Shown here in pieces: positions 1,403-12,644 of a DNA stretch of 64,000 bases. Position 1 is the stretch's first letter. Every line of letters starts with the position of its first letter. Below the pieces are notes generated by a model, which was given only the letters and a program-made list of their open reading frames with translations, was not told where the DNA came from and did not search any database. The DNA is from Phycisphaerae bacterium. Its GTDB lineage: Bacteria > Planctomycetota > Phycisphaerae > UBA1845. Location: the NCBI GenBank assembly GCA_963666835.2, contig CAXXGO010000003.1:544001-608000 (forward strand), read 5' to 3'. Made by a program: the position numbers and the translations under genes.

Positions 1403-3454
1403 CTATCGCGGACTGCTGATGTGCTCGGTGAAAACCCGGTAGTCAGACAGGTCAATGTCCTGGTCGTCGTCGAAATCGAACTTCAGCCAGTACTTCAGGT
1501 CCGGCTCCTCGTATTGGGGCCACTCCTTGCTACCGCTGAAGCCGGTTTGCATGACGGCGAAATCTCTCAGATCGAGATCGCCGTCATCGTTGAAGTCCCC
1601 AAGCAAACACCCCTCGCGGCAAGGATCGGCAATACAATCCGGAACGCCGTTCTGTAACACGCACAAGTCTGGCGGGTAGTCCATCAGACAGTAGGTTCCG
1701 TCACTCCAGCAGCACTCCCCAAACAGCGGGCAAACGCAGACCCCGCCGGCGGTAGTCTCCGGGCAGAGATCTAAGCAGTCGTCGAGCCCGTCACCGTCAG
1801 TATCCGCAGGAAAAACGCAATCGTCCGGGATTCCGTTGCCGTCACAGTCGTCCTCGCATCCGTCCGGAATCGTGTTGTCGTTGCAATCCCGGCACCACAA
1901 CGACTCATCACAGTCCCGAATATCGCATTGATCCGCGATGCCATTACCGTTGCAGTCCGGTTCGCACTCGTCCGGAACCACGTTATTGTTACAGTCGATA
2001 CTCCCGCCACAAGGCGGCTCGCAATCATCTGCATCGCAGTCGACGTCACACCGATCGGCAATACCGTTTCCGTTACAGTCAAGCGACTCGGGTCTTGGGC
2101 CGATACTGAGCCCCGTCATCTCCGCTGGTGATCCCGGCTTGAACAATCCGACCGTAACCGTAATCGGCCCGGGTACGATATTGGCATCAAAGGAGAAGCT
2201 ATACAGCGTACTGAAACGCAGAGCGTTGGCATTGGGATTCTCGGCGAAACTCTCGGTCGACCAGGTCAGCGCGCCGCCTTCTTCAACGCTTGGCCAGTCG
2301 TCACCGCTATATATCTCGCCGCTGTGATAATCTACATCGTGGAACGCTATGTTCGAGATAATCGCGCCCTCGGGAAGCGGTATGCTGAACGAACCGGCCG
2401 CCCGGTCGGTGTTCAGATTCTGCAATGCGTAGGAATACCGGTATTCGCCGGTCCCAAGGTCCACCGCCTTGGCCGCGAGAATCAGAAGCCCTTCACTGGG
2501 AATCTGTAGGTCCGTTTCGACCACGGCCGGGTCCGTATCTTGCCACGCGCGCACCGCCGGTTGTTCCCATTGCGTCTGTCCGGTCGGTGTCACTACGAAC
2601 TCGTGTGCTTCTGTCTTGGTCAACATGGCCGGGCGATACGAAGCGTTGTTAAAACCGTTCCCGGCCATGGCATCCGCCGCGGTCACATAGTGGCTTTGCA
2701 GGAAGTAAGCCGCACCAGCATTCAGAGCAGGATCCAGATCTTCTTCATGAACCTGCAGCCTCTTCCCGACGATCGGCTCCGGATCAGGCGCGGTCCATGG
2801 ATATGGAAAGTACCCGGTGAATACATTCACGTCCGACCGCCTACTCATATTGGTTTGGATACCGTTGATCGACGCAGAGTGCTCGTCAGAGCAACCTATT
2901 CCGAGCGCACTTCCGTCTGTCGGGTCTTCGCATTGCCCCGGCCAGTACCCACAGAAGTTCCACGACATGGCGTACAAACAATGCGAGCACCAACTCATTC
3001 CGATCTGTTGAAACTGATCGTTCTTGAGTTGGTACATGCTCTGCACGATGATTGGGTGGTTGTTGGTGTGCGCTACCCAGCTTACCCGAGCGTCCCCCAG
3101 ATTGCAGACACGCGTGCCGACAGCATAAGCGTGGATGTCCTCGTAGGCGCCGCTGCCGTGGCCGTAATACTGAACCGATTGAAGATCCGCGACGATGACA
3201 TCAGGGCCGCCCGTGCCGGCCACTCCGCCGACCCCGATAGACGGTTCCTCCGCTGCCGCGGCCCGTGAATCGAGCCTGCTCGTCTCAACGCGCTGCGGCT
3301 CAGTCGCTGTCTTCTCCGGAAGCGTATTGCTCGGGCTGAGTACGCCCGAATCCTCGTTGATCGCCCCGAGGCAAAGAGGCAGTCCGTACGACGCGGACAG
3401 ACCTGCCGCCAAGAGACTGATAACCACGCAGTCCAAACCGCAACGTCCCCTCAT
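1403..3454 (-). CDS. Secreted protein (~683 aa): putative lysyl-oxidase-like core with degenerate catalytic residues, Cys/Asp-rich DCNxNGxxDxC repeats, C-terminal dockerin-like EF-hand pair
   Basis: ORF 1403..3484, start moved to ATG 3454 after RBS AAGGAG; signal peptide; paralog of 3562..6159; tail GDFNDDGDLDLRDF...FDFDDDQDIDLSDY. Confidence 0.85.
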   Translation of the reverse strand: MRGRCGLDCVVISLLAAGLSASYGLPLCLGAINEDSGVLSPSNTLPEKTATEPQRVETSRLDSRAAAAEEPSIGVGGVAGTGGPDVIVADLQSVQYYGHGSGAYEDIHAYAVGTRVCNLGDARVSWVAHTNNHPIIVQSMYQLKNDQFQQIGMSWCSHCLYAMSWNFCGYWPGQCEDPTDGSALGIGCSDEHSASINGIQTNMSRRSDVNVFTGYFPYPWTAPDPEPIVGKRLQVHEEDLDPALNAGAAYFLQSHYVTAADAMAGNGFNNASYRPAMLTKTEAHEFVVTPTGQTQWEQPAVRAWQDTDPAVVETDLQIPSEGLLILAAKAVDLGTGEYRYSYALQNLNTDRAAGSFSIPLPEGAIISNIAFHDVDYHSGEIYSGDDWPSVEEGGALTWSTESFAENPNANALRFSTLYSFSFDANIVPGPITVTVGLFKPGSPAEMTGLSIGPRPESLDCNGNGIADRCDVDCDADDCEPPCGGSIDCNNNVVPDECEPDCNGNGIADQCDIRDCDESLWCRDCNDNTIPDGCEDDCDGNGIPDDCVFPADTDGDGLDDCLDLCPETTAGGVCVCPLFGECCWSDGTYCLMDYPPDLCVLQNGVPDCIADPCREGCLLGDFNDDGDLDLRDFAVMQTGFSGSKEWPQYEEPDLKYWLKFDFDDDQDIDLSDYRVFTEHISSPR

Positions 3455-3561
3455 CACATCGCTCCTTCCAGGGACACGGGCCATCCCCCCGGCAACCTCA
3501 ACCCGCCCTCCGGTTGTCAGCGCCCGGCAACTCAGGGCAACGGCGCCGAGCTCATCAGCGA

Positions 3562-6159
3562 TTATCGCGGACTGCTCATGTGGTCGGTGTAGATGCCGTA
3601 GTCCGACAGGTCGATGTCTATATCCTCATCGAAATCAAACTTCAGCCAATAGTCCTGGATGGGTTCTTCGTACTGGACCCAGTCCTTGCTGCCGCTGAAC
3701 CCGATCTGCATGACGGCAAAATCCCGCATATCGAGATCACCGTCATCGTCGAAGTCTCCGATCAGACACCCCTGGCGACAAGGATCTGCAAGGCAATCCG
3801 GTACACCGTTCTGCGTCACGCACAGGTCCAGCGGGTAGTCCTGTAGACAGTAGCTCCCGTTATTCCAACAGCACTCTCCTGACGGCGGGCAGTAACACAC
3901 CGCCCCCGGAGTTGTCAACGGGCAGAGATCCGAACAGTCATCGAGCCCGTCACCGTCGGTATCCGCAGGCGGCACGCAATCATCGGGAATCCCGTTGCCG
4001 TCGCAGTCGGCCTCACAGCCGTCCGGGACCGTGTTGCTATTGCAGTCCTGGCACCACAGCGATTCATCACAGTCCTGAATGTCACATTCATCCGCAATGT
4101 CATTACCGTTGCAGTCGGGCTCGCACTCGTCCGGAACGACATTGTCGTTACAGTCGATACTGCCGCCACAAGGCGGCTCACAGCCATCTGCATTGCAGTC
4201 AACATCACACTGGTCCGCAATACCGTTCCGGTTGCAGTCGATCAGAGCGAGTTTCGGCCCGATGCTCACCCCCGTCACCTCGGTCGGCGATCCCGGCTTG
4301 AACAGGCCCACCGTGATTGTAGTCGAAGCGGGTTCCACGTTGGCGTCAAAATAGAAACTGTACAGCGTGCTGAAACGCAAGGCATTGGCGTTGGGATTCT
4401 CAGCGTAGGTCTCGGTCGACCAGGTGAGCACACCGTCTCCTTCAACACCGAGCCAATCTTCATTGCTATATACCTCGCCACTGTGATAGTCCACATCATG
4501 AAATGTGATGTTCGACAGCACCGCACCATCGGGAAGCGGTACGCTGAATGAACCTGCCGCCCGATCGGAGTTGAGATTCTGCAGAGCGTAAGAGTAGCGA
4601 TACTCGCCGGTTCCGAGATCCACGGCCTTGGCGGCCAGAATCAGAAGCCCTTCACCCGGAATCTGCAAGTCGGTCTCGACTACGTCAGGGTCATTATCCT
4701 GCCACGCGCGCACTGCAGGCTGCTCCCGGTGCGTCTGGCCCGATGGAGTCACCACAAACTCGTGCGTACTCGGCTTGCTCAACGTGGCAGGACGGTACGA
4801 GGCATTGTTGAAATGGTTTCCGACCAGAGCGTCACCCGGGGTCACGTAATGGCCTTGTAGGAAATAGGACGCACCGGGGTTGAGGTCAGGATCGAGATCG
4901 CTCTCATGAACTTGCAGACGTTTGCCGACCGTCGGCTCCGGATCAGGCGCGGTCCACGGATACGGGAAGTACCCGGTGAATGCGTTTACGTCTGACCGCC
5001 GACTCATGTTGCTCTGAACGCCGTTGAGCGATGCGGCGTACGGGTCAGAGCAGCCTACGCCCAGCGCACTTCCGTCGGTCGGATCCTCACACCCGTCCGG
5101 CCAGTACCCGCAGAAGTTCCAGGAGACGGCGTAGAAACCGTGTTTGACCCAGCTCATTCCAATCTGCTCGAAACGGTTGTCTTTGAGCCGGTACATGTTC
5201 TGCACGATGACCGGATGCTGGTTGGTGTATGACACCCAGCTTGCCCGAACGTCCCCGAGGTTGCAGGCATGCGTACCGATAGCGTACGCGTGAATGTCTT
5301 CGTAGTCTCCGCTGCCGTGCCCGTAGTACTCAACAGTTTGCAGATCGGCGACGATAACGTCTGGCCCACTGGCGCTGGCTACTCCACCTCTGGGCACCGC
5401 CAACTCCTCGAAGGTCGGCCCCGCGTCTACCGCATCCTCCGGCGAAGCGGGCATGGCAACACCGTCAACACGCAACGAACCGATCTCGACGCCGGCTGCC
5501 TCGTGGATTCCGGATTCCATTGCCCACGCTTCGTTGACAAGAAGATCGCCGATGATGCTGAGTTCCTGCGTCGCCGCCACGAAATCCACCATTACCGACA
5601 AGAGCCCGAAGGACGCGTATTCCCCTCTCTCCGCGTCGAGTGTGCTCAACACGCGGTAGGCGCCGGACTTGTCAGCAACCAGCGCCAGGTTCCCGATTAC
5701 GACACGATCGCCGGACTTGTCCAAAAGGAACGCCCCGCTTGTCTGGATCCTGCCGCCGATAATGCCGCGAAACGCCTTGCCGGTCGCGTCAATCTGCAGT
5801 GTCGAGTCCGGCTCTATGTTGAATGACACGTGGTGACCATCACTGCTCTCTTCAACCGCCCCGCGAGCCACAAACCCCAAACCCAACTCCTGCAAGGTAA
5901 CTGGGTTAAAATCGAATCTTACCGTTCCTCCGCGGACAACATAACGAGCCGTCTCCGCCGTCGCGGTCTGGGTATCGATGCCCCGCCCCCCCGCGGACCG
6001 CGGCTTCGCCGCCGCGCTCTGCAAGGTCGGTTTGCTCCGGCTCAGCCCCGCCAACTCGTCTTTTAGCTGTTTCGCGCCACCGGGTGACGCCTGCCACACC
6101 CAAACCCCAACCGCCAGGACACCAATAACTACGCCAGCCAAAGCCAAACGCCGCGTCAT
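3562..6159 (-). CDS. Secreted/membrane-anchored protein (~865 aa): extra N-terminal domain, putative lysyl-oxidase-like core, Cys/Asp-rich repeats, dockerin-like tail
   Basis: ORF 3562..6198, start moved to ATG 6159 after AAGGAG (same aaggagcgatgt-n-atg context as its paralog); N-terminal hydrophobic helix; motifs GPDVIVAD, CNLGD, HPVIVQNMYRLKD, WVKHGF, GVGCSDPY, NNASY. Confidence 0.87.
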   Translation of the reverse strand: MTRRLALAGVVIGVLAVGVWVWQASPGGAKQLKDELAGLSRSKPTLQSAAAKPRSAGGRGIDTQTATAETARYVVRGGTVRFDFNPVTLQELGLGFVARGAVEESSDGHHVSFNIEPDSTLQIDATGKAFRGIIGGRIQTSGAFLLDKSGDRVVIGNLALVADKSGAYRVLSTLDAERGEYASFGLLSVMVDFVAATQELSIIGDLLVNEAWAMESGIHEAAGVEIGSLRVDGVAMPASPEDAVDAGPTFEELAVPRGGVASASGPDVIVADLQTVEYYGHGSGDYEDIHAYAIGTHACNLGDVRASWVSYTNQHPVIVQNMYRLKDNRFEQIGMSWVKHGFYAVSWNFCGYWPDGCEDPTDGSALGVGCSDPYAASLNGVQSNMSRRSDVNAFTGYFPYPWTAPDPEPTVGKRLQVHESDLDPDLNPGASYFLQGHYVTPGDALVGNHFNNASYRPATLSKPSTHEFVVTPSGQTHREQPAVRAWQDNDPDVVETDLQIPGEGLLILAAKAVDLGTGEYRYSYALQNLNSDRAAGSFSVPLPDGAVLSNITFHDVDYHSGEVYSNEDWLGVEGDGVLTWSTETYAENPNANALRFSTLYSFYFDANVEPASTTITVGLFKPGSPTEVTGVSIGPKLALIDCNRNGIADQCDVDCNADGCEPPCGGSIDCNDNVVPDECEPDCNGNDIADECDIQDCDESLWCQDCNSNTVPDGCEADCDGNGIPDDCVPPADTDGDGLDDCSDLCPLTTPGAVCYCPPSGECCWNNGSYCLQDYPLDLCVTQNGVPDCLADPCRQGCLIGDFDDDGDLDMRDFAVMQIGFSGSKDWVQYEEPIQDYWLKFDFDEDIDIDLSDYGIYTDHMSSPR

Positions 6160-6517
6160 GACATCGCTCCTTGTGGCGTCATAAGCCGACGCCGCCAATC
6201 TCAGTGCGCCCTTCTTACCCTCGCGTGATCTCGCTCCGCCTTGCGCTCGAGTCGTGCATCAGAACCATAACCCGTAGTCCCAGCCGAAACCCAACTGCAA
6301 ACTCGGCGTTACAACTGCGGAACACCTGCAGCAACCGGTCCAACGTACCAACTTCCGGATCGGCCCATTCTCCGGCCCTACGCACCCACACCCAACTGAT
6401 TCTTCGGCATAACTGCCGGCTACCGCCCAGCCAACGGCACGAGATGGGAACGGGGAGAAATAGCTCCGCCCCACTCGCGAAGCAGCCCACCCGGGTGTTC
6501 TTGCCAAACTACAACCA

Positions 6518-6757: not shown

Positions 6758-7423
6758 TCAGCTCAGCGGAAGGGGCAAAAGGCCGGCTCGCACCATGTCG
6801 TCTGCTCCCGACGCCAACGAATCCAAGAACCCGCTCAGATTCGCGTAGACCACGTCGGCGCCGGCTTGGTGAAGCCGCGCGGCGGCACAGACTCCACCGC
6901 TAATCCCGACCGTGAACAACCCGGCCTCTTGCGCGGCACGGACCACCGAATCAGTGGCTGCCAGGACTATGCAACGCGGGTCGCCCGCTCCGAGCACTTT
7001 GAGTTCGCCCGGCCTGCGTCTGGGGTCCGCGTTCAACTGTTCGAACTCTCCGCAATCCGCCAGCGCCGCCCGTTCCAGGACCTGGATCCGCCCCGGTTTA
7101 TTAGATCCCAGCGTAAGCAGGCATTTCGCCCCATAATTGGCAAGTGCCTGCACTATGTTGCCTGCCTGATCCTGCAGCTTGGCCAATGCTACGGAGGCAT
7201 CATCCTCAACTTGCCGATCGTATTGCAGGAAGTACTGCTTTAGCTTGGTGGGTTTAGCCCCACGCAGCAGATCTGCCGCTCTTCCCTTCGTTCGCGTTAT
7301 CCGCCAGAAAGACCGTTCGTCCAGGCACGACCAGCCGACTGCGCGTGCGGCCTCCTGGTGCGCGCGGAAGTGCATTGCTGCGACATCAGCCACCGGCCCG
7401 TCAAACTCCAATAGAAACCTCAC
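6758..7423 (-). CDS. HAD-superfamily hydrolase-like protein with atypical motif I
   Basis: GTG start with RBS GGGAG; FLLEFDGPVAD in place of DxDGT; C-terminal AAQEAGLFTVGISGG...LHQAGADVV typical of Gph-like HADs. Confidence 0.75.
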   Translation of the reverse strand: MRFLLEFDGPVADVAAMHFRAHQEAARAVGWSCLDERSFWRITRTKGRAADLLRGAKPTKLKQYFLQYDRQVEDDASVALAKLQDQAGNIVQALANYGAKCLLTLGSNKPGRIQVLERAALADCGEFEQLNADPRRRPGELKVLGAGDPRCIVLAATDSVVRAAQEAGLFTVGISGGVCAAARLHQAGADVVYANLSGFLDSLASGADDMVRAGLLPLPLS

Positions 7424-7625: not shown

Positions 7626-8135
7626 CTACTTCGGGAAATTGAAGGTCTTGCCCTTCCACGTAGGCGACGTCGCAACCATGTAGGAACCACTCTTGGTCCG
7701 CGCGACGGCCTTAATCGTGTTCTTTCCGAACTTCGCATCCAGGACGTTCTTGCACGCCGCCGTGGTGCAGCTCTGAGGATTGAAGTTCTTGTGAGCCATG
7801 CGCGCCCACCGCATTAGCTGAGCCCGCGTGCAGGTCTGCACGACCGCGCCCTTGTTGATCCAATTCGCGAACGTATTCAACGTTGCGGGAGTCGGACGCG
7901 AGTACTTGGCCGGACCGCGAGTCTGATTGTACAGCGTCCGGTAAGAGTTAATCTTGGTGTTGAACGTATCATACACGGTCTTGTACTTCGAGGGGACGGC
8001 CGTCATCTTGGCCGTCTGCGTACGATTAGTCGTGGTGTGGCTCGTCCGCGTTCGTGAATAGGTGTTCCGTTTCCCCGTCGTCGTGGTCCTGCCCCGCGAC
8101 GTCCAACCGCTTCGTCCTCTTGTATTCGTTGCCAT
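7626..8135 (-). CDS. Hypothetical, extremely basic Thr/Arg/Lys-rich protein (169 aa)
   Basis: ATG 8135 with GGAG RBS, followed by its own terminator; by hand about 31 K+R versus 2 D and 0 E; no signal peptide or TM helix. Confidence 0.8.
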   Translation of the reverse strand: MATNTRGRSGWTSRGRTTTTGKRNTYSRTRTSHTTTNRTQTAKMTAVPSKYKTVYDTFNTKINSYRTLYNQTRGPAKYSRPTPATLNTFANWINKGAVVQTCTRAQLMRWARMAHKNFNPQSCTTAACKNVLDAKFGKNTIKAVARTKSGSYMVATSPTWKGKTFNFPK

Positions 8136-8601
8136 TGGCTGTGTCTCCAAAAGTACACGCTACAGTCTTAATACCGACGTTGGCGTACATCGGAACAGAC
8201 CGGGGGGCTCTTGAGGTATTGGCGTAATCTACCCGCTGATCAGATCGCGATCTGCGCTGCCCATCCGCCGTCCAGCAGCCCAATGCGCCGGCCGCAAAGG
8301 CTCGGCGCAGTTTCGCGGGTGGCGCAGATTAACGCTTAAAACAAGTGGTTTCTGCGCATCAAGCCCGTCGAGGTTCGGTCGCCGCGACGCCCAGAAGCCA
8401 ACGCTTGCGAGCTAATCACCGCCGAAACAACTTCGAAAAAAAAAGATCTGCCCATCGATTTTTTCTCGGGAAAAGCGGTCGAAACAGGCGAATCGGAGAA
8501 TGCGGGCCAGTCGTCCGTCACCTACCCCGAAGCGTAGCGACGACCGATCATTCGCGCGATCGAGCGGCCCTCGCGCAAATCGCAGATACCACCGATACTC
8601 A

Positions 8602-9177
8602 CTATCCACCCAGCAGCGAATCGTGCTCCCGGAGTGCCTTGATTGCTTCGAACAGGCGAGACTTCACCACCGACTCGGATAGTTCGAGAATCTCCGCGAT
8701 TTCAGCCCGAGATAAGGCCTCGACATACCGCAACCGCAGCACCTCTCGTTGCGTATCCGGGAGTCTGCCGACCAACTCGGTGATCCGGCACCTCATCTCG
8801 CTCCGCACCAGTCTGGTGAGGTTGCCGGTCATGGTTGCCTCAACCTGGGAGGCGGCGGGCAATTCCTGCCGGTCTTTCCGGCGCCCCTTCGTCCGAATGA
8901 TGTTGAGGCATTGGTTTCGAGCTATCTTGTATAGCCAAGGTCTGAACCTCTCCGGCGCCCGCCCCGCCGTAAGGACCTTGTACCAAATGTCCTGGATCGC
9001 GTCCTCAGCCTCCTCCATGCTACCGAGATAGCCCCAGCAGAACCGCAAAAGGGACTCGCGATAGGCAGCATCTAACAGTTCGGCCGCCGCGGTGACGTCG
9101 CCGCCTCGCAGAGCCCGTACCAGCGCACCGGTTTGGTCCGTTTCTCGCTCCTGACGGTCGGGCCTCTCCTGATCCAC
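8602..9177 (-). CDS. ECF RNA polymerase sigma-70 factor
   Basis: GTG 9177 with GGAGGAG RBS; region 2 EEAEDAIQD...FRPWLYKIARN; region 4 LPDTQREVLRLRY...EIAEILELSESVVKSRLFEA. Confidence 0.93.
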   Translation of the reverse strand: MDQERPDRQERETDQTGALVRALRGGDVTAAAELLDAAYRESLLRFCWGYLGSMEEAEDAIQDIWYKVLTAGRAPERFRPWLYKIARNQCLNIIRTKGRRKDRQELPAASQVEATMTGNLTRLVRSEMRCRITELVGRLPDTQREVLRLRYVEALSRAEIAEILELSESVVKSRLFEAIKALREHDSLLGG

Positions 9178-9349
9178 ACGCTCCTCCGCGATGCCGCCGC
9201 TACTGCCGAGCCCCGTTAACCACCACACCTGAACGAAGCTCCCGTTCCTCAGAATTCTCGGAAGTTCTGCAGGTTGTCAAGTCGGAGTCGTGATTCTTTG
9301 CAGGATCCTGCGGCTTGTTTGCGTGGTCGGCTTGGTCCTATTCGCCCGG

Positions 9350-11065
9350 CTATACCGAATCAGCGCCGATTTCTGCCGGCAGACCCGGCACATCCTCCTC
9401 GCGCCCTTCGGCGGGTGGCTTCTGCGACCCACTCGGAGCAGGTGAAGCTCCTTCAGGCGTGGTCACCTTCGCACTTTGAAGCTCCTCCAGGTCCGCCAGC
9501 TCCACATTGATCTCCTCCACCACCTCCGGGACGTTCCAGAAGGAGGGGCCGTACAGAATCCGAAGTGCCCGAAGGGCCTCACCGCGTTCCGCAAACCACC
9601 GCTCCTCTTTGCTACTTACGAACGCCTCCAGGGCATTCTCAAGGTCGTCTTCAGCAGCTTCCAAAGTCTCGTCCGAAACCTCATCTTCTTTCGAGGCCAT
9701 CGCCCGCTCTATGACGAGGAGCCCGCGGTTCAATAGCGCGACCCCGAAATGTCGAGGGTCCGTTCGCCCAACGCGGCGGAGGGTCTGGATCGACCGTGTG
9801 TAGAACGGCTCGGCCTCATCCAGCTTCCCCTGATCGTGCAGACTTCGAGCAAGCCTGACCTGCATGACCGCATATTTGAGATCACTCATGTTCGCGAGAT
9901 CGCCTTCACGGTCCTGGAATTCCCGCGCGGTCTCGTTCACCCAGAGTATCGAGGCACCCACCACCATGAACATCGCTGCGGTCACAGCAAAGACGGCCTT
10001 GTGCCGTATGACCATCTTGCGAAGCCGATAAAGGACCCCGGCTCGCCTGGCGAGGATCGGCTGATCAGTCAGATAACGTCCGATGTCCTCCGCCAAAGCC
10101 GCGGCGCTCTGGTACCTCCGGCCGCGTTCCTTCTCCAGCGCCTTTAGAGATATGGTATCCAAGTCCCCGCGGAGGCTCCGGTCTACCGACGACGGCCTTC
10201 GGGGCGGCTCTTCGCAGATTGTCTTGATAGCCTCCGGGAGCACGGCACGGCTAACGGTGTACGGCAACCTCCCCGTGATCATCTCGAAGAAGATCACTCC
10301 CAAGGCGTAAACATCACTTCGAACGTCGATCTCATCCGGATTCCCGCGGGCCTCCTCGGGACTCATGTACGGCAGTGTTCCCCGAATCTGCCCGATCTCG
10401 GTCCCGCTGATCGTCATCCCGTCTCCAGGCTCTCCAATCCGGGCCAATCCAAAATCCAGGATCTTGGGGTTCCCTTCGGCATCGATGAGGATATTGGACG
10501 GTTTGAGATCTCGGTGGATTACCCCGCGCAGGTGCGCGTAGTGAATCGCCTCGCATACTCTCTGGAACATCTTAAGGTACTCACGGCGGGGCAGCTCCCC
10601 GGCTCGCACGTACTCATCCAGCCGTACGCCCTGCACAAGCTCCATAGCGAAGAAATGTTGCCCGTCCCCTGTGCAGCCGGCGTCGTAGATCGCCGCGATC
10701 GCGGGGTGTTTCAAGCGGGCAAGCGTCTGTACTTCTCGCTGAAAGAGTTTAACGTGGTACTCGTCAACGAACTCCCCGCCTCGGACCACTTTCACCGCCA
10801 CCCGACGGTGAGGAGTTTGCTGCTGCCCCTCGTACACGATTCCCATGCCGCCTGCCCCCAGGCAACGATGGATGACGTAAGGTCCGATGTTACCCGGCAT
10901 CGGCGGACTTGCCGGAAGCGATGTGGCACGTACCGCGTCAATCGTGGTGCGAAACTGCGCGGCCCGCTCACGACACTCAGAGCACTTGGTTAAATGCTCT
11001 TCGATTTCCGGTGAGTTTCGGTCAATACCGCTCCAGAGCTCTTCTTCGGAGATATCGCAGCCCAT
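9350..11065 (-). CDS. Hanks-type Ser/Thr protein kinase with N-terminal zinc-finger anti-sigma-like motif, TM helix and TPR-like C-terminus
   Basis: HLTKCSEC (HxxxCxxC); LGAGGMGIVY, VAVK, HRDLKPSN, DFG, GTLPYMSPE; TM AVFAVTAAMFMVVGASILWV; start estimated at ATG 11065. Confidence 0.92.
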   Translation of the reverse strand: MGCDISEEELWSGIDRNSPEIEEHLTKCSECRERAAQFRTTIDAVRATSLPASPPMPGNIGPYVIHRCLGAGGMGIVYEGQQQTPHRRVAVKVVRGGEFVDEYHVKLFQREVQTLARLKHPAIAAIYDAGCTGDGQHFFAMELVQGVRLDEYVRAGELPRREYLKMFQRVCEAIHYAHLRGVIHRDLKPSNILIDAEGNPKILDFGLARIGEPGDGMTISGTEIGQIRGTLPYMSPEEARGNPDEIDVRSDVYALGVIFFEMITGRLPYTVSRAVLPEAIKTICEEPPRRPSSVDRSLRGDLDTISLKALEKERGRRYQSAAALAEDIGRYLTDQPILARRAGVLYRLRKMVIRHKAVFAVTAAMFMVVGASILWVNETAREFQDREGDLANMSDLKYAVMQVRLARSLHDQGKLDEAEPFYTRSIQTLRRVGRTDPRHFGVALLNRGLLVIERAMASKEDEVSDETLEAAEDDLENALEAFVSSKEERWFAERGEALRALRILYGPSFWNVPEVVEEINVELADLEELQSAKVTTPEGASPAPSGSQKPPAEGREEDVPGLPAEIGADSV

Positions 11066-11388
11066 CACTACCCTCACGAGCATGGTGAGGCCGGAACCTC
11101 GCCGGCCCGGCTCTCCACCCACCTCGAAAGCCCCCTTCACCACATCTTAACGCGTTCGAATCCGCGCCGAGCAGTATCCGGCAACAAATATTCTGTTTTT
11201 TGTCCGTCGTTTCGTCTCCGGCGGTGTTGTAACAGATGGATACGGGGATTCTGACCGGTTGTTCGAGTTTCGCCCGGCTGGCAGCCAACCGTTTGAGTTC
11301 GCCTTGGGGATAGGACACGGTGGTCGTTAGATCGCCGGTTTTGCATGGTTGCCCGCCAGACGTCGGATGGGGCGGCGAGTGTTGACTA

Positions 11389-11417: not shown

Positions 11418-11510
11418 GCGGAAGTTCGGACACTGATCTGAAGTGTCTGAGCCGGATCGCAGGGATTCGCGGTGCAGAGCACCCGAAATTACTTCAGAGG
11501 GACTGTTGTC

Positions 11511-12644
11511 ATGACTAGCATATTTGGACAAGGGCGTCGGCGTAACGGCCACCCGGCCGGGTTCACGCTTATCGAACTGTTGGTGGTAATCGCCATCATC
11601 GCGCTGCTGATTTCGATTCTGCTTCCGTCGCTTGAGGCGGCGCGACGGCAATCGAAGCAGTCGGCTTGCCTGTCGCATATCAAGAACATCGCGACCAGCA
11701 GCCGAGTGTACGAGGCGGATGATCCCAATGGCTGGGGCATTCCGGTGCACCCCCTCACGTACTGGCAGGATCCGAATGATCCTAGCTTCATCGGGGCGTA
11801 CGAGTGGGGCGGGAAGTCCGGGATCGGTTCAGAGGGCTTCTGCATTGGACCGTCAGGTCAGTACGCGTTCCTCACCAGCAAGTACGGGACGAAGGCCGGG
11901 TTCGGCCCGGCAACGCGGCCGATGAATGACATCTTGTACCCCGCGGGCTTCAAGGACAACCTCCATACCCCAACGGGGTGGATCCGTCAGGGCTGCATTG
12001 ACGACACGAAGCTGGATCTCTCGTTGTTCAGTTGTCCGGCAGACGAAGGCCCGCCGCGTGGTGCGCATTGCCCGACCTGGATTGCTCATAGCGAGCGGTC
12101 CTCGTACGACCACTTCGGCACCAGCTTTGCGGCCAACCTCTTCATGACGTCGTTCGTTGGTGGTGGCCCGGTTTATAGTAACTCGCCATACATGCGCCCG
12201 ACGTCTCGCGTACCCACGCCGGCTCGGACGCTGTACTACGAGGAGAACATTGGTCGCTGGGCGTGGTGCTGCAAGAACGAGAAGCCTGACTGCGAGAGCA
12301 CGATTCCGGGACTTGCGATCGATCCAGGACCAACCAAGGTCATCACCGGCTGGCACGGCAAGAACTGGACGTTCAACCGCGCGTTTGTTGATGGCCACGC
12401 TGAAAACCAGCGTATCTTGATCGAAGGGACGGAGGATTCGGCAGGTTACTCGGAGCACTACCGGACCGAGGTGGTCTGGCCCGACGACGAAGAACAGCAG
12501 GCCCGCTCGGTCTGCATCATCGTCCGAGGTCCGGGCTGGCAAAAAGACACCCTGCCTGCGGAGTCGATCTACACTGGGCTGACGTTTAATGGTGACGGGC
12601 GCTACTCCTTCGACAGATGTGTCGGCGACGGCGCCATATATTAG
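11511..12644 (+). CDS. Prepilin-type N-terminal cleavage/methylation domain protein with H-X9-DG-type C-terminal motif (DUF1559-like)
   Basis: [25 protein letters not shown]...AR...[24 protein letters not shown]. Confidence 0.92.

Follow-up and report, generated by a model that had tools for sequence, protein, structure and literature searches.

Our structural predictions, profile comparisons and survey of homologs point to an unrecognised relative of lysyl oxidase (LOX) encoded at 3562-6198 (-) in the window studied here, that is, the whole 64,000-nucleotide stretch at positions 544,001 to 608,000 of contig CAXXGO010000003.1 from a Phycisphaerae bacterium (GenBank assembly GCA_963666835.2). 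The predicted product is an exported protein with a core of LOX fold, in which Lys352 and Tyr387 occupy the positions of the two residues that form lysine tyrosylquinone (LTQ) in LOX, and judging from its sequence it would, like LOX, be extracellular. We think it probable that the core is homologous to LOX, and consider the chances roughly balanced that Lys352 and Tyr387 take part in quinone chemistry. We give similarly even weight to the full proposal, namely that the two residues would yield an LTQ-like cofactor in what is likely an amine-oxidising redox enzyme that does without the three-His copper site. LTQ is, to our knowledge, known only from the lysyl oxidases of Pfam family PF01186, and the large unannotated family described here is likely to represent a new kind of redox enzyme.

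An AlphaFold2 model of residues 270-645, built on an alignment of 115 sequences, has a predicted local distance difference test score (pLDDT) of 96.0 and a predicted template modelling score of 0.93. When this model was compared with 48,161 chains of the Protein Data Bank (PDB) using VIA-align, the best structural match was chain 5ze3_B of human LOXL2 (PDB ID 5ZE3, a PF01186 protein whose LTQ derives from K653 and Y689 and whose copper ligands are H626, H628 and H630), with a Z score of 10.4 and a root mean square deviation (rmsd) of 4.2 over 166 aligned residues; the alignment spans model residues 4-233, which are residues 273-502 of the protein. The next match confined to the same residues, the beta-galactosidase 7nit_A, has a Z score of 7.3. 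A repeat structure search likewise placed 5ze3_A first among 998 at Z 10.4, with 166-168 residues aligned across both searches, and in these LOXL2 matches the identity is 10% and the rmsd 4.0-4.2 Å. Foldseek also recovered 5ze3_B with a probability of 1.00 (E 2.2e-4), at rank 12 by E-value; its rmsd of 6.4 Å is the lowest listed, whereas the 11 chains ahead of it, two-sandwich adhesins and arrestins, have values of about 15-23 Å and, as far as the model can tell, fit the two-sandwich arrangement of the whole core and not its LOX-fold subdomain. An initial annotation, made from the letters of the window, had proposed a fold related to LOX, and the predicted model agrees with it, as residues 273-502 take up the fold of the LOXL2 catalytic domain. 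The remainder of the core, residues 503-645, gave many tied immunoglobulin (Ig)-like matches at Z 8-9.5 (3esm, 7me6 and pilus adhesins), and an Ig-like partner is present with the LOX-fold subdomain in every domain examined. A YcnI-like copper domain was considered for this Ig-like half and rejected, as 7me6 reached Z 9.4 but was tied with many unrelated Ig-like chains.

The order and spacing of motifs within the core follow LOX closely. As first annotated, the codons of Lys352 (5143-5145) and Tyr387 (5038-5040) lie 35 residues apart, and the motifs quoted at the time are all found in the translation (GPDVIVADL, CNLGD, H328-x7-Y336RLKD, K352-HGF, LGVGCSDPY387, PGASYFL and N464-N465), as are the matches counted from the Lys at K0, F+3, L+27, G+30, C+31, D+33 and Y+35. 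In the excerpts of the three LOX papers on which our citations rest throughout, human LOX has K320 and Y355, also 35 residues apart, and the talon WEWHSCHQHYHSMD (PMC4448552), and LOXL2 has the talon H626/H628/H630, a strand F635-T-H-Y638-D-L, the segment H652-K653-A-S-F656 and Y689 (PMC5899467, PMC9659206). The LOXL2 numbering thereby gives H630-x7-Y638, a Phe three residues after the Lys and a Cys four before the Tyr, the same as in the Lys352/Tyr387 protein: the His-to-Tyr interval is 8 in both, Lys-to-Phe is +3 in both and Cys-to-Tyr is -4 in both, with 16 residues from Tyr to Lys here against 15 in LOXL2, and 35 from Lys to Tyr here against 36 in LOXL2 (35 in human LOX). Also shared with LOXL2 are the Asp two residues before the Tyr, a YxL strand eight residues after the last talon His, an N-terminal PD and a late NN. 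Moreover, no Lys in residues 273-502 other than Lys352 reaches 85% conservation, and because only four Tyr residues are conserved there, we estimate that one would fall at +35 or +36 by chance in only about 3-4% of cases.

An unbiased alignment with hhalign, in which 133 N-subdomains of the family were compared with 26 canonical planctomycete LOX domains taken from loci L001-L026 (a set of 12 domains was also used), gives the same register. It sets N313/G315, Y336-R-L, K352, F355, G382, D385 and Y387 on the LOX-invariant N/G, YRL, K, F, G, D and Y, and its score of 20.5 compares with 11.2 for a reversed control and a maximum of 17.2 among 30 block-shuffled controls, none of which reached the real value. 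In the core model Tyr387 ends strand 384-387 and Lys352 lies in the short strand 351-353, and Y689 and K653 of LOXL2 are described in like strand positions (PMC9659206). By analogy with the C663-C685 disulfide of LOXL2 (PMC5899467), Cys363 and Cys383 are predicted to be disulfide-bonded. The conserved residues D280 (in PD-V) and N464-N465 lie at places matching the LOXL2 Ca site (D549, L550, E722, D724, N727 and N728), with counterparts of E722 and D724 not assignable from sequence. Judged on these alignments, the family carries the putative LTQ-precursor pair, a conserved Lys and Tyr 35-36 residues apart and aligned to those of LOX.

A number of results weigh against a LOX relationship. Sequence methods provide no significant link: PF01186 has no match in the protein at E<=1 and none in the whole genome at E<=10, a family profile found no LOX chain among PDB sequences at E<=10, phmmer found no match between the core and 12 canonical LOX open reading frames (ORFs), and hhalign against canonical LOX gives a non-significant probability of 0.6-1.4% (P 0.036-0.1) and shifts His328 by one residue from the third talon His. 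A Z score of 10.4 for a beta-sandwich is also only about 3 units over the noise level stated for the tool. To these can be added that phmmer with the protein against all PDB sequences returned one weak irrelevant match and no LOX, that an ESM Atlas feature search with the LOX-fold part returned only unnamed clusters, below 0.9, and that for the relative P0043 the Atlas gave only 'hypothetical' clusters of its own family, with no LOX family named. One could accordingly argue that the resemblance is convergent, with a generic jelly-roll or beta-sandwich in an unrelated family and motif matches that are coincidental. Such convergence would sit well with the failure of every sequence and profile test to reach significance, with a structural match that is moderate in Z score, identity and rmsd, with the 11 Foldseek chains that outrank 5ze3 by E-value, and with the fact that the LOXL2 core itself superposes on the beta-galactosidase sandwich, which the LOXL2 authors name as the nearest fold (PMC5899467). 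It sits poorly with the first rank of LOXL2 among 48,161 chains, some 3 Z units over the next subdomain match, with the large rmsd and two-sandwich arrangement of the Foldseek chains ahead, with eight ordered motifs at near-identical LOX spacing, and with an hhalign score above the reversed and all 30 of 30 shuffled controls, and we regard convergence as rather improbable.

Additional support for a joint function of Lys352 and Tyr387 comes from the homologs. With the window's own proteins counted once (three duplicates removed), we kept 250 of 267 domain hits, those covering most of the profile, and found both residues in 223 domains, neither in 24, Lys alone in 2 and Tyr alone in 1; by column, Lys352 is present in 225, His328 in 249, His353 in 246, Cys363 in 249 and Cys383 in all 250. 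A near-homolog set of 122 domains gave a similar picture (both in 104, neither in 17, Tyr only in 1), and in divergent members at 28-33% identity from five other genomes, Lys, His353 and Tyr were present in 11/11 and His328 in 9/11. On a FastTree tree made without the Lys and Tyr columns, the Lys state changes at least 13 times and the Tyr state at least 14, and in nine independent pairs differing in Lys the Tyr differed in the same direction in about 7.6 and in the opposite direction in 0 (sign test p ~0.008). The pair of the initial annotation is thus conserved across homologs and evolutionarily coupled, and the sequences show that the two residues are kept or lost together, with repeated independent losses. 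Conservation is lost together with the pair at the neighbouring columns D385, P386 and G354 and at I331 and N334 in the strand after His328, and in copies without the pair His328, His353 and the Cys residues stay conserved. All family-invariant residues are present in the 3562-6198 product.

The metal site differs from that of LOX, and several points speak against quinone chemistry. The initial annotation had described a copper triad with a single His left and, as a possible substitute ligand, another His in KHGF, and the near-invariance of His328 and His353 given above upholds this description. The talon region reads Y324-T-N-Q-H328, so that Thr325, Asn326 and Gln327 precede His328 in place of an HxHxH motif (T325 and N326 are themselves conserved at 90% or more), and no third conserved metal ligand was identified in the family, whereas LOX needs copper to make LTQ (PMC5899467). 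An extra His precedes the Lys in LOX (H-K), while in the Lys352/Tyr387 family a conserved extra His follows it (K-H). Furthermore, the source genome, which is 92% complete, has a cytochrome bd match and no haem-copper oxidase match, so the organism may see little of the O2 that LTQ biogenesis needs. Paired loss of Lys and Tyr would equally fit any two-residue active or binding site, and the cytochrome link described below is restricted to a minority of members, with most loci lacking a conserved neighbour.

These points bring in a second alternative, in which the core is a true LOX-fold relative and Lys352 and Tyr387 form no quinone and instead, together with His328, His353 and Asp385, make up another catalytic or ligand site (a metal site, a lyase- or hydrolase-type centre or a recognition pocket) in an adhesin or other enzyme. 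The fold match serves this explanation equally well; the copper talon is missing, paired Lys/Tyr loss is expected of any two cooperating residues, the genome has no haem-copper oxidase match, and the constant Ig-like partner resembles those of adhesins. His328 and His353 are conserved in copies without the pair, and part of the site therefore has a role independent of Lys and Tyr. What it leaves without explanation is that the Lys, the Phe at +3, the Cys at -4, the Asp at -2 and the Tyr all fall on positions that build or flank LTQ in LOX, and c-type cytochrome fusions and operon links indicate redox chemistry. We hold this second alternative to be possible, if on the unlikely side.

Our preferred reading, quinone formation at Lys352 and Tyr387, would proceed as follows. 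Once the protein is exported, O2 and a metal held by His328 and His353 would oxidise Tyr387 to dopaquinone, to which Lys352 would add to give an LTQ-like quinone; this could then form a Schiff base with a primary amine, either peptidyl lysine or a free amine, and release aldehyde and ammonia. The reduced cofactor would be re-oxidised by O2 or, in members fused to or followed by cytochromes, by c-type haem, and the Ca-loop tail would tether the enzyme outside the cell.

Unlike LOX, some family members are fused to or lie beside cytochromes c. CxxCH motifs occur C-terminal to the core in 19/247 family proteins, with four regularly spaced motifs in five of them (P0101, P0102, P0121, P0130 and P0152), and precomputed Pfam cytochrome c domains are found on P0101, P0102 and P0121. 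All 19 carry both Lys and Tyr, which is not significant alone because 89% of the family does so. A gene for a cytochrome with 7-8 haems (734-821 aa) directly follows the family gene on the same strand in 6/29 related loci (L067, L069, L070, L072, L075 and L079, about 9.1-12.2 kb in each), with two such genes in L070, and five of the six preceding family genes clearly have the Lys/Tyr pair and the N-domain. These octahaem neighbours have no NCBIfam match and reach Pfam cytochrome families (MtrC/MtrF-like) only below the cut-off. In the source genome (contig G000:C3), genes with 2, 0 and 10 CxxCH motifs, 12 in total, lie 299 nt beyond the paralog that follows the LOX-fold gene and share its strand (window coordinates -5391 to 1104 (-)). 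Across 30 regions (29 related loci and the window), the most widespread neighbour family is found in 6, and no conserved operon partner emerged from this comparison. As far as gene arrangements go, the cytochrome fusions and adjacencies suggest redox chemistry.

Quinohaemoprotein amine dehydrogenase, with cysteine tryptophylquinone (CTQ), and methylamine dehydrogenase, with tryptophan tryptophylquinone (TTQ), pass electrons from a peptide-derived quinone to haem or a cupredoxin. They have unrelated folds, their cofactors are made from Cys-Trp or Trp-Trp and not from Lys-Tyr, and they depend on dedicated maturation enzymes. The likeness would therefore be one of functional analogy only, in which coupling of a quinone to c-type haem could fit the family's cytochrome fusions and operon links. 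Taken further, the family might constitute a new class of quinoprotein, with a talon-free Lys-Tyr quinone that passes electrons to extracellular multihaem c-type cytochromes rather than to O2 with release of H2O2, and in Phycisphaerae and Acidobacteriota it would work outside the cell as a dehydrogenase of amines or peptidyl lysine, with the HtaA-fold N-domain as a pro-domain or maturation partner; this is speculative, and we would not bet on it.

The family is large. A word-indexed search with residues 270-645, in which 7,997 candidates were scored, found 1,972 proteins at E<=1e-3, and exhaustive comparison with 1.84 billion cluster representatives yielded 2,842 (50%-identity clusters) with E<=1e-3, 1,413 of them with E<=1e-30. 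Source organisms, where named, are metagenome-assembled genomes of Phycisphaerae or Planctomycetes, and the proteins carry names such as 'hypothetical', 'thrombospondin type 3 repeat' and 'EF-hand'; ESM Atlas structure neighbours include clusters from Acidobacteriota as well as Planctomycetota. Of 401 Planctomycetota genomes sampled, 86 have the core, most of them with several copies, which are often in tandem. The initial suggestion of a bacterial LOX-like family that had gone unrecognised is supported by the lack of Pfam and NCBIfam matches and by the 2,842 clusters. A full-text literature search found nothing relevant on lysyl oxidase in Planctomycetes, Planctomycetota or Phycisphaerae, and the excerpted part of a 2015 LOX survey names five bacterial phyla, Planctomycetes not included (PMC4448552).

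The source genome holds three copies of the core. The paralog at 1403-3484 (-) lies directly downstream on the same strand; it has Ser and His at the Lys352 and Tyr387 sites and no HtaA-fold N-domain, and retains His328, His353 and every Cys. From its sequence it is likely non-catalytic, and it may be a natural 'dead' control or have another role. The third copy (G000:C1:1082940-1084031 (+), locus L047) lies in a 932-aa frame with a core 53% identical and has Phe and Asn at the two sites, so that 3562-6198 is the sole copy with the Lys/Tyr pair in the genome. The idea that tandem arrays always join an enzyme to a copy without the pair was rejected, as 28/30 copies in 14 loci carry both residues.

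Canonical LOX domains are also found in this phylum and allow a direct comparison. PF01186 matches occur in 22/401 other Planctomycetota genomes, and the domains have an intact HxHxH, Lys and Tyr (PF01186 E 1e-34 to 2e-3), several of them within ORFs of 560-1,800 aa. Like the 3562-6198 product they are secreted, and they show the same ordered motifs PD, NxG, YRL, KxxF, G-x-x-D-x-Y, GxYxL and NN; they differ in having a Trp where the Lys352/Tyr387 family has Cys383, and they have no detectable sequence similarity to the core, the source genome itself being without a canonical LOX. Four sampled genomes carry both canonical LOX and Lys352/Tyr387-family genes. A canonical planctomycete LOX with the same Ig-like second domain was sought, and no similarity was found. 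Unlike LOX in general, the family has about 38 residues inserted between Tyr387 and the PGxY strand, and its core is flanked by an HtaA-fold domain on the N-terminal side and a fixed Ig-like domain on the C-terminal side.

A second large bacterial LOX-fold family with Lys and Tyr and a different metal site would test what LTQ formation requires, and the family could supply a soluble, disulfide-stabilised model of the active site and show what role LOX-type chemistry has in bacteria. In the excerpts of PMC5899467 and PMC9659206 no structure of a mature, LTQ-bearing LOX is reported, LOXL2 5ZE3 being a zinc-bound precursor. Repeated fusion to, or adjacency with, multihaem cytochromes suggests a route for electrons that has not been known for the LOX fold, and natural paralogs without the pair, such as the one at 1403-3484, could serve directly as negative controls. 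Should the two residues have another function, this would still be a large unannotated exoprotein family in an under-studied phylum.

The N-domain (residues ~85-251) was modelled with a pLDDT of 93, and a structure search with it gave 6jsc_A at Z 14.3 and rmsd 3.1 with 151/167 residues aligned, against Z 7.2 for the next unrelated chain; HtaB, ChtA and HbpA scored Z 10-12.6, and Foldseek found 6jsa at E 2e-5 with template modelling scores of 0.55-0.65. The predicted model therefore shares the fold of the haem-binding CR domains of Corynebacterium HtaA, HtaB and ChtA (6JSA, 6JSC, 6JSB and 9O0K), which we take to be Pfam PF04213, at about 10% identity and with no Pfam match. CR domains have a conserved haem-ligating Tyr with a partner His. 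In an alignment of 74 N-domain sequences, no Tyr or His able to ligate haem emerged as a consensus residue, and only one Gly, one Ala and one Glu are nearly invariant. Where the first core domain starts at residue 170 or later, 166 proteins have the Lys/Tyr pair and 1 does not, and where it starts earlier 57 have it and 23 do not, with early starts perhaps partly reflecting truncated gene calls. On these counts the HtaA-fold N-domain appears to accompany the Lys/Tyr forms.

The frame at 3562-6198 is intact throughout its 878 aa. It opens with a TTG, and its first ATG, Met14 at 6157-6159 (-), is the likely start of the gene; 6159 is also the end coordinate in the initial annotation. The public gene call (database protein P0006) is 772 aa and starts about 106 residues inside this frame, and thereby omits the signal-like segment together with the start of the N-domain, and homolog alignment supports the longer form as the probable product. 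This difference at the start is what could be said for a spurious ORF or decaying pseudogene; given the intact 878-aa frame, the 2,842 cluster representatives at E<=1e-3, the pLDDT of 96 and the presence of all family-invariant residues, we consider that explanation extremely unlikely. Scans of the protein with Pfam (E<=1) and NCBIfam gave only weak transmembrane-like matches on the N-terminal hydrophobic segment MTRRLALAGVVIGVLAVGVWVWQA, which is a putative signal peptide or signal anchor. From the N-terminus, the protein consists of a signal-like segment, the HtaA-fold domain, the LOX-fold subdomain, the Ig-like domain, a Cys-rich spacer and a two-Ca-loop tail (Table 1).

The spacer contains five DCN-type repeats, 25 Cys residues and a loop like those of thrombospondin type 3 (TSP3), and in the tail some 39 residues separate two DxDxDG-like loops, one of which reads FDFDEDIDIDLSDY. 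The tail had been called a dockerin-like anchor, a description that is weakly supported: its paired Ca-type loops resemble those of type I dockerins (PF00404) and EF-hand pairs, and a search with the family profile gave E 0.0046 for an EF-hand protein of the PDB, CIB, and E 0.15-1 for dockerins, but no Pfam family, PF00404 included, matches the tail at E<=10, and none of the 46 Dockerin_1 matches in the genome (E<=0.01) falls on it. PF00404 was found on 4/120 homologs among the matches listed and on 13-33% of the members of related ESM Atlas clusters. Cohesin matches in the source genome are weak.

Table 1. Features of the LOX-fold gene and its tandem paralog, in window coordinates
Feature	Position	Strand	Basis
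Whole ORF, 878 aa from TTG	3562..6198	-	translation
Arg-Arg and hydrophobic N-terminal segment	6088..6159	-	translation; weak transmembrane-like Pfam matches DUF2530/DUF4190 here
N-domain, residues ~85-251, all-beta, HtaA/HtaB/ChtA CR fold (predicted)	5446..5946	-	model and structure search
Lysyl-oxidase-fold subdomain, residues 273-502 (predicted)	4693..5382	-	5ze3 top structural match of model
His328, sole remaining His of the LOX HxHxH talon	5215..5217	-	249/250 domains; H-x7-Y spacing as LOXL2 His630
Lys352-His353; Lys352 at the LTQ-lysine position	5140..5145	-	K 225/250, H353 246/250; hhalign
Cys363, putative disulfide partner of Cys383	5110..5112	-	249/250; analogy with LOXL2 C663-C685
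C383-S-D385-P-Y387; Tyr387 at the LTQ-tyrosine position, C-terminal end of strand	5038..5052	-	alignment and model
Ig-like beta-sandwich, residues 503-645 (predicted)	4264..4692	-	structure search of model
Cys-rich spacer	3772..4263	-	translation; no Pfam match
TSP3-like loop DTDGDGLDD within spacer	3928-3963	-	translation
C-terminal tail with two Ca-loop-like motifs, EF-hand/dockerin-like	3565..3771	-	motifs; weak profile matches
Ca-loop-like motif DFDDDGDLD in tail	3721-3756	-	translation
Ca-loop-like motif FDFDEDIDIDLSDY in tail	3598-3639	-	translation
Tandem paralog, 693 aa	1403..3484	-	78% identity over 615 aa

Upstream of the LOX-fold gene, the ORFs at 6758-7423 (-) and 7626-8150 (-), of 221 and 174 aa, have no Pfam match at E<=0.01, and the product of the second has an N-terminus rich in Thr, Arg and Lys. 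An extracytoplasmic function (ECF)-type sigma-70 factor at 8602-9228 (-) (Pfam Sigma70_r2/r4) adjoins a gene at 9350-11143 (-) for a 597-aa protein that is Ser/Thr kinase-like by eye only and has a C-terminal repeat region. Beyond it, 11472-12644 (+) encodes a 390-aa protein whose N-terminus presumably resembles the prepilin-type cleavage/methylation segment typical of the abundant pseudopilin-like proteins of planctomycetes.

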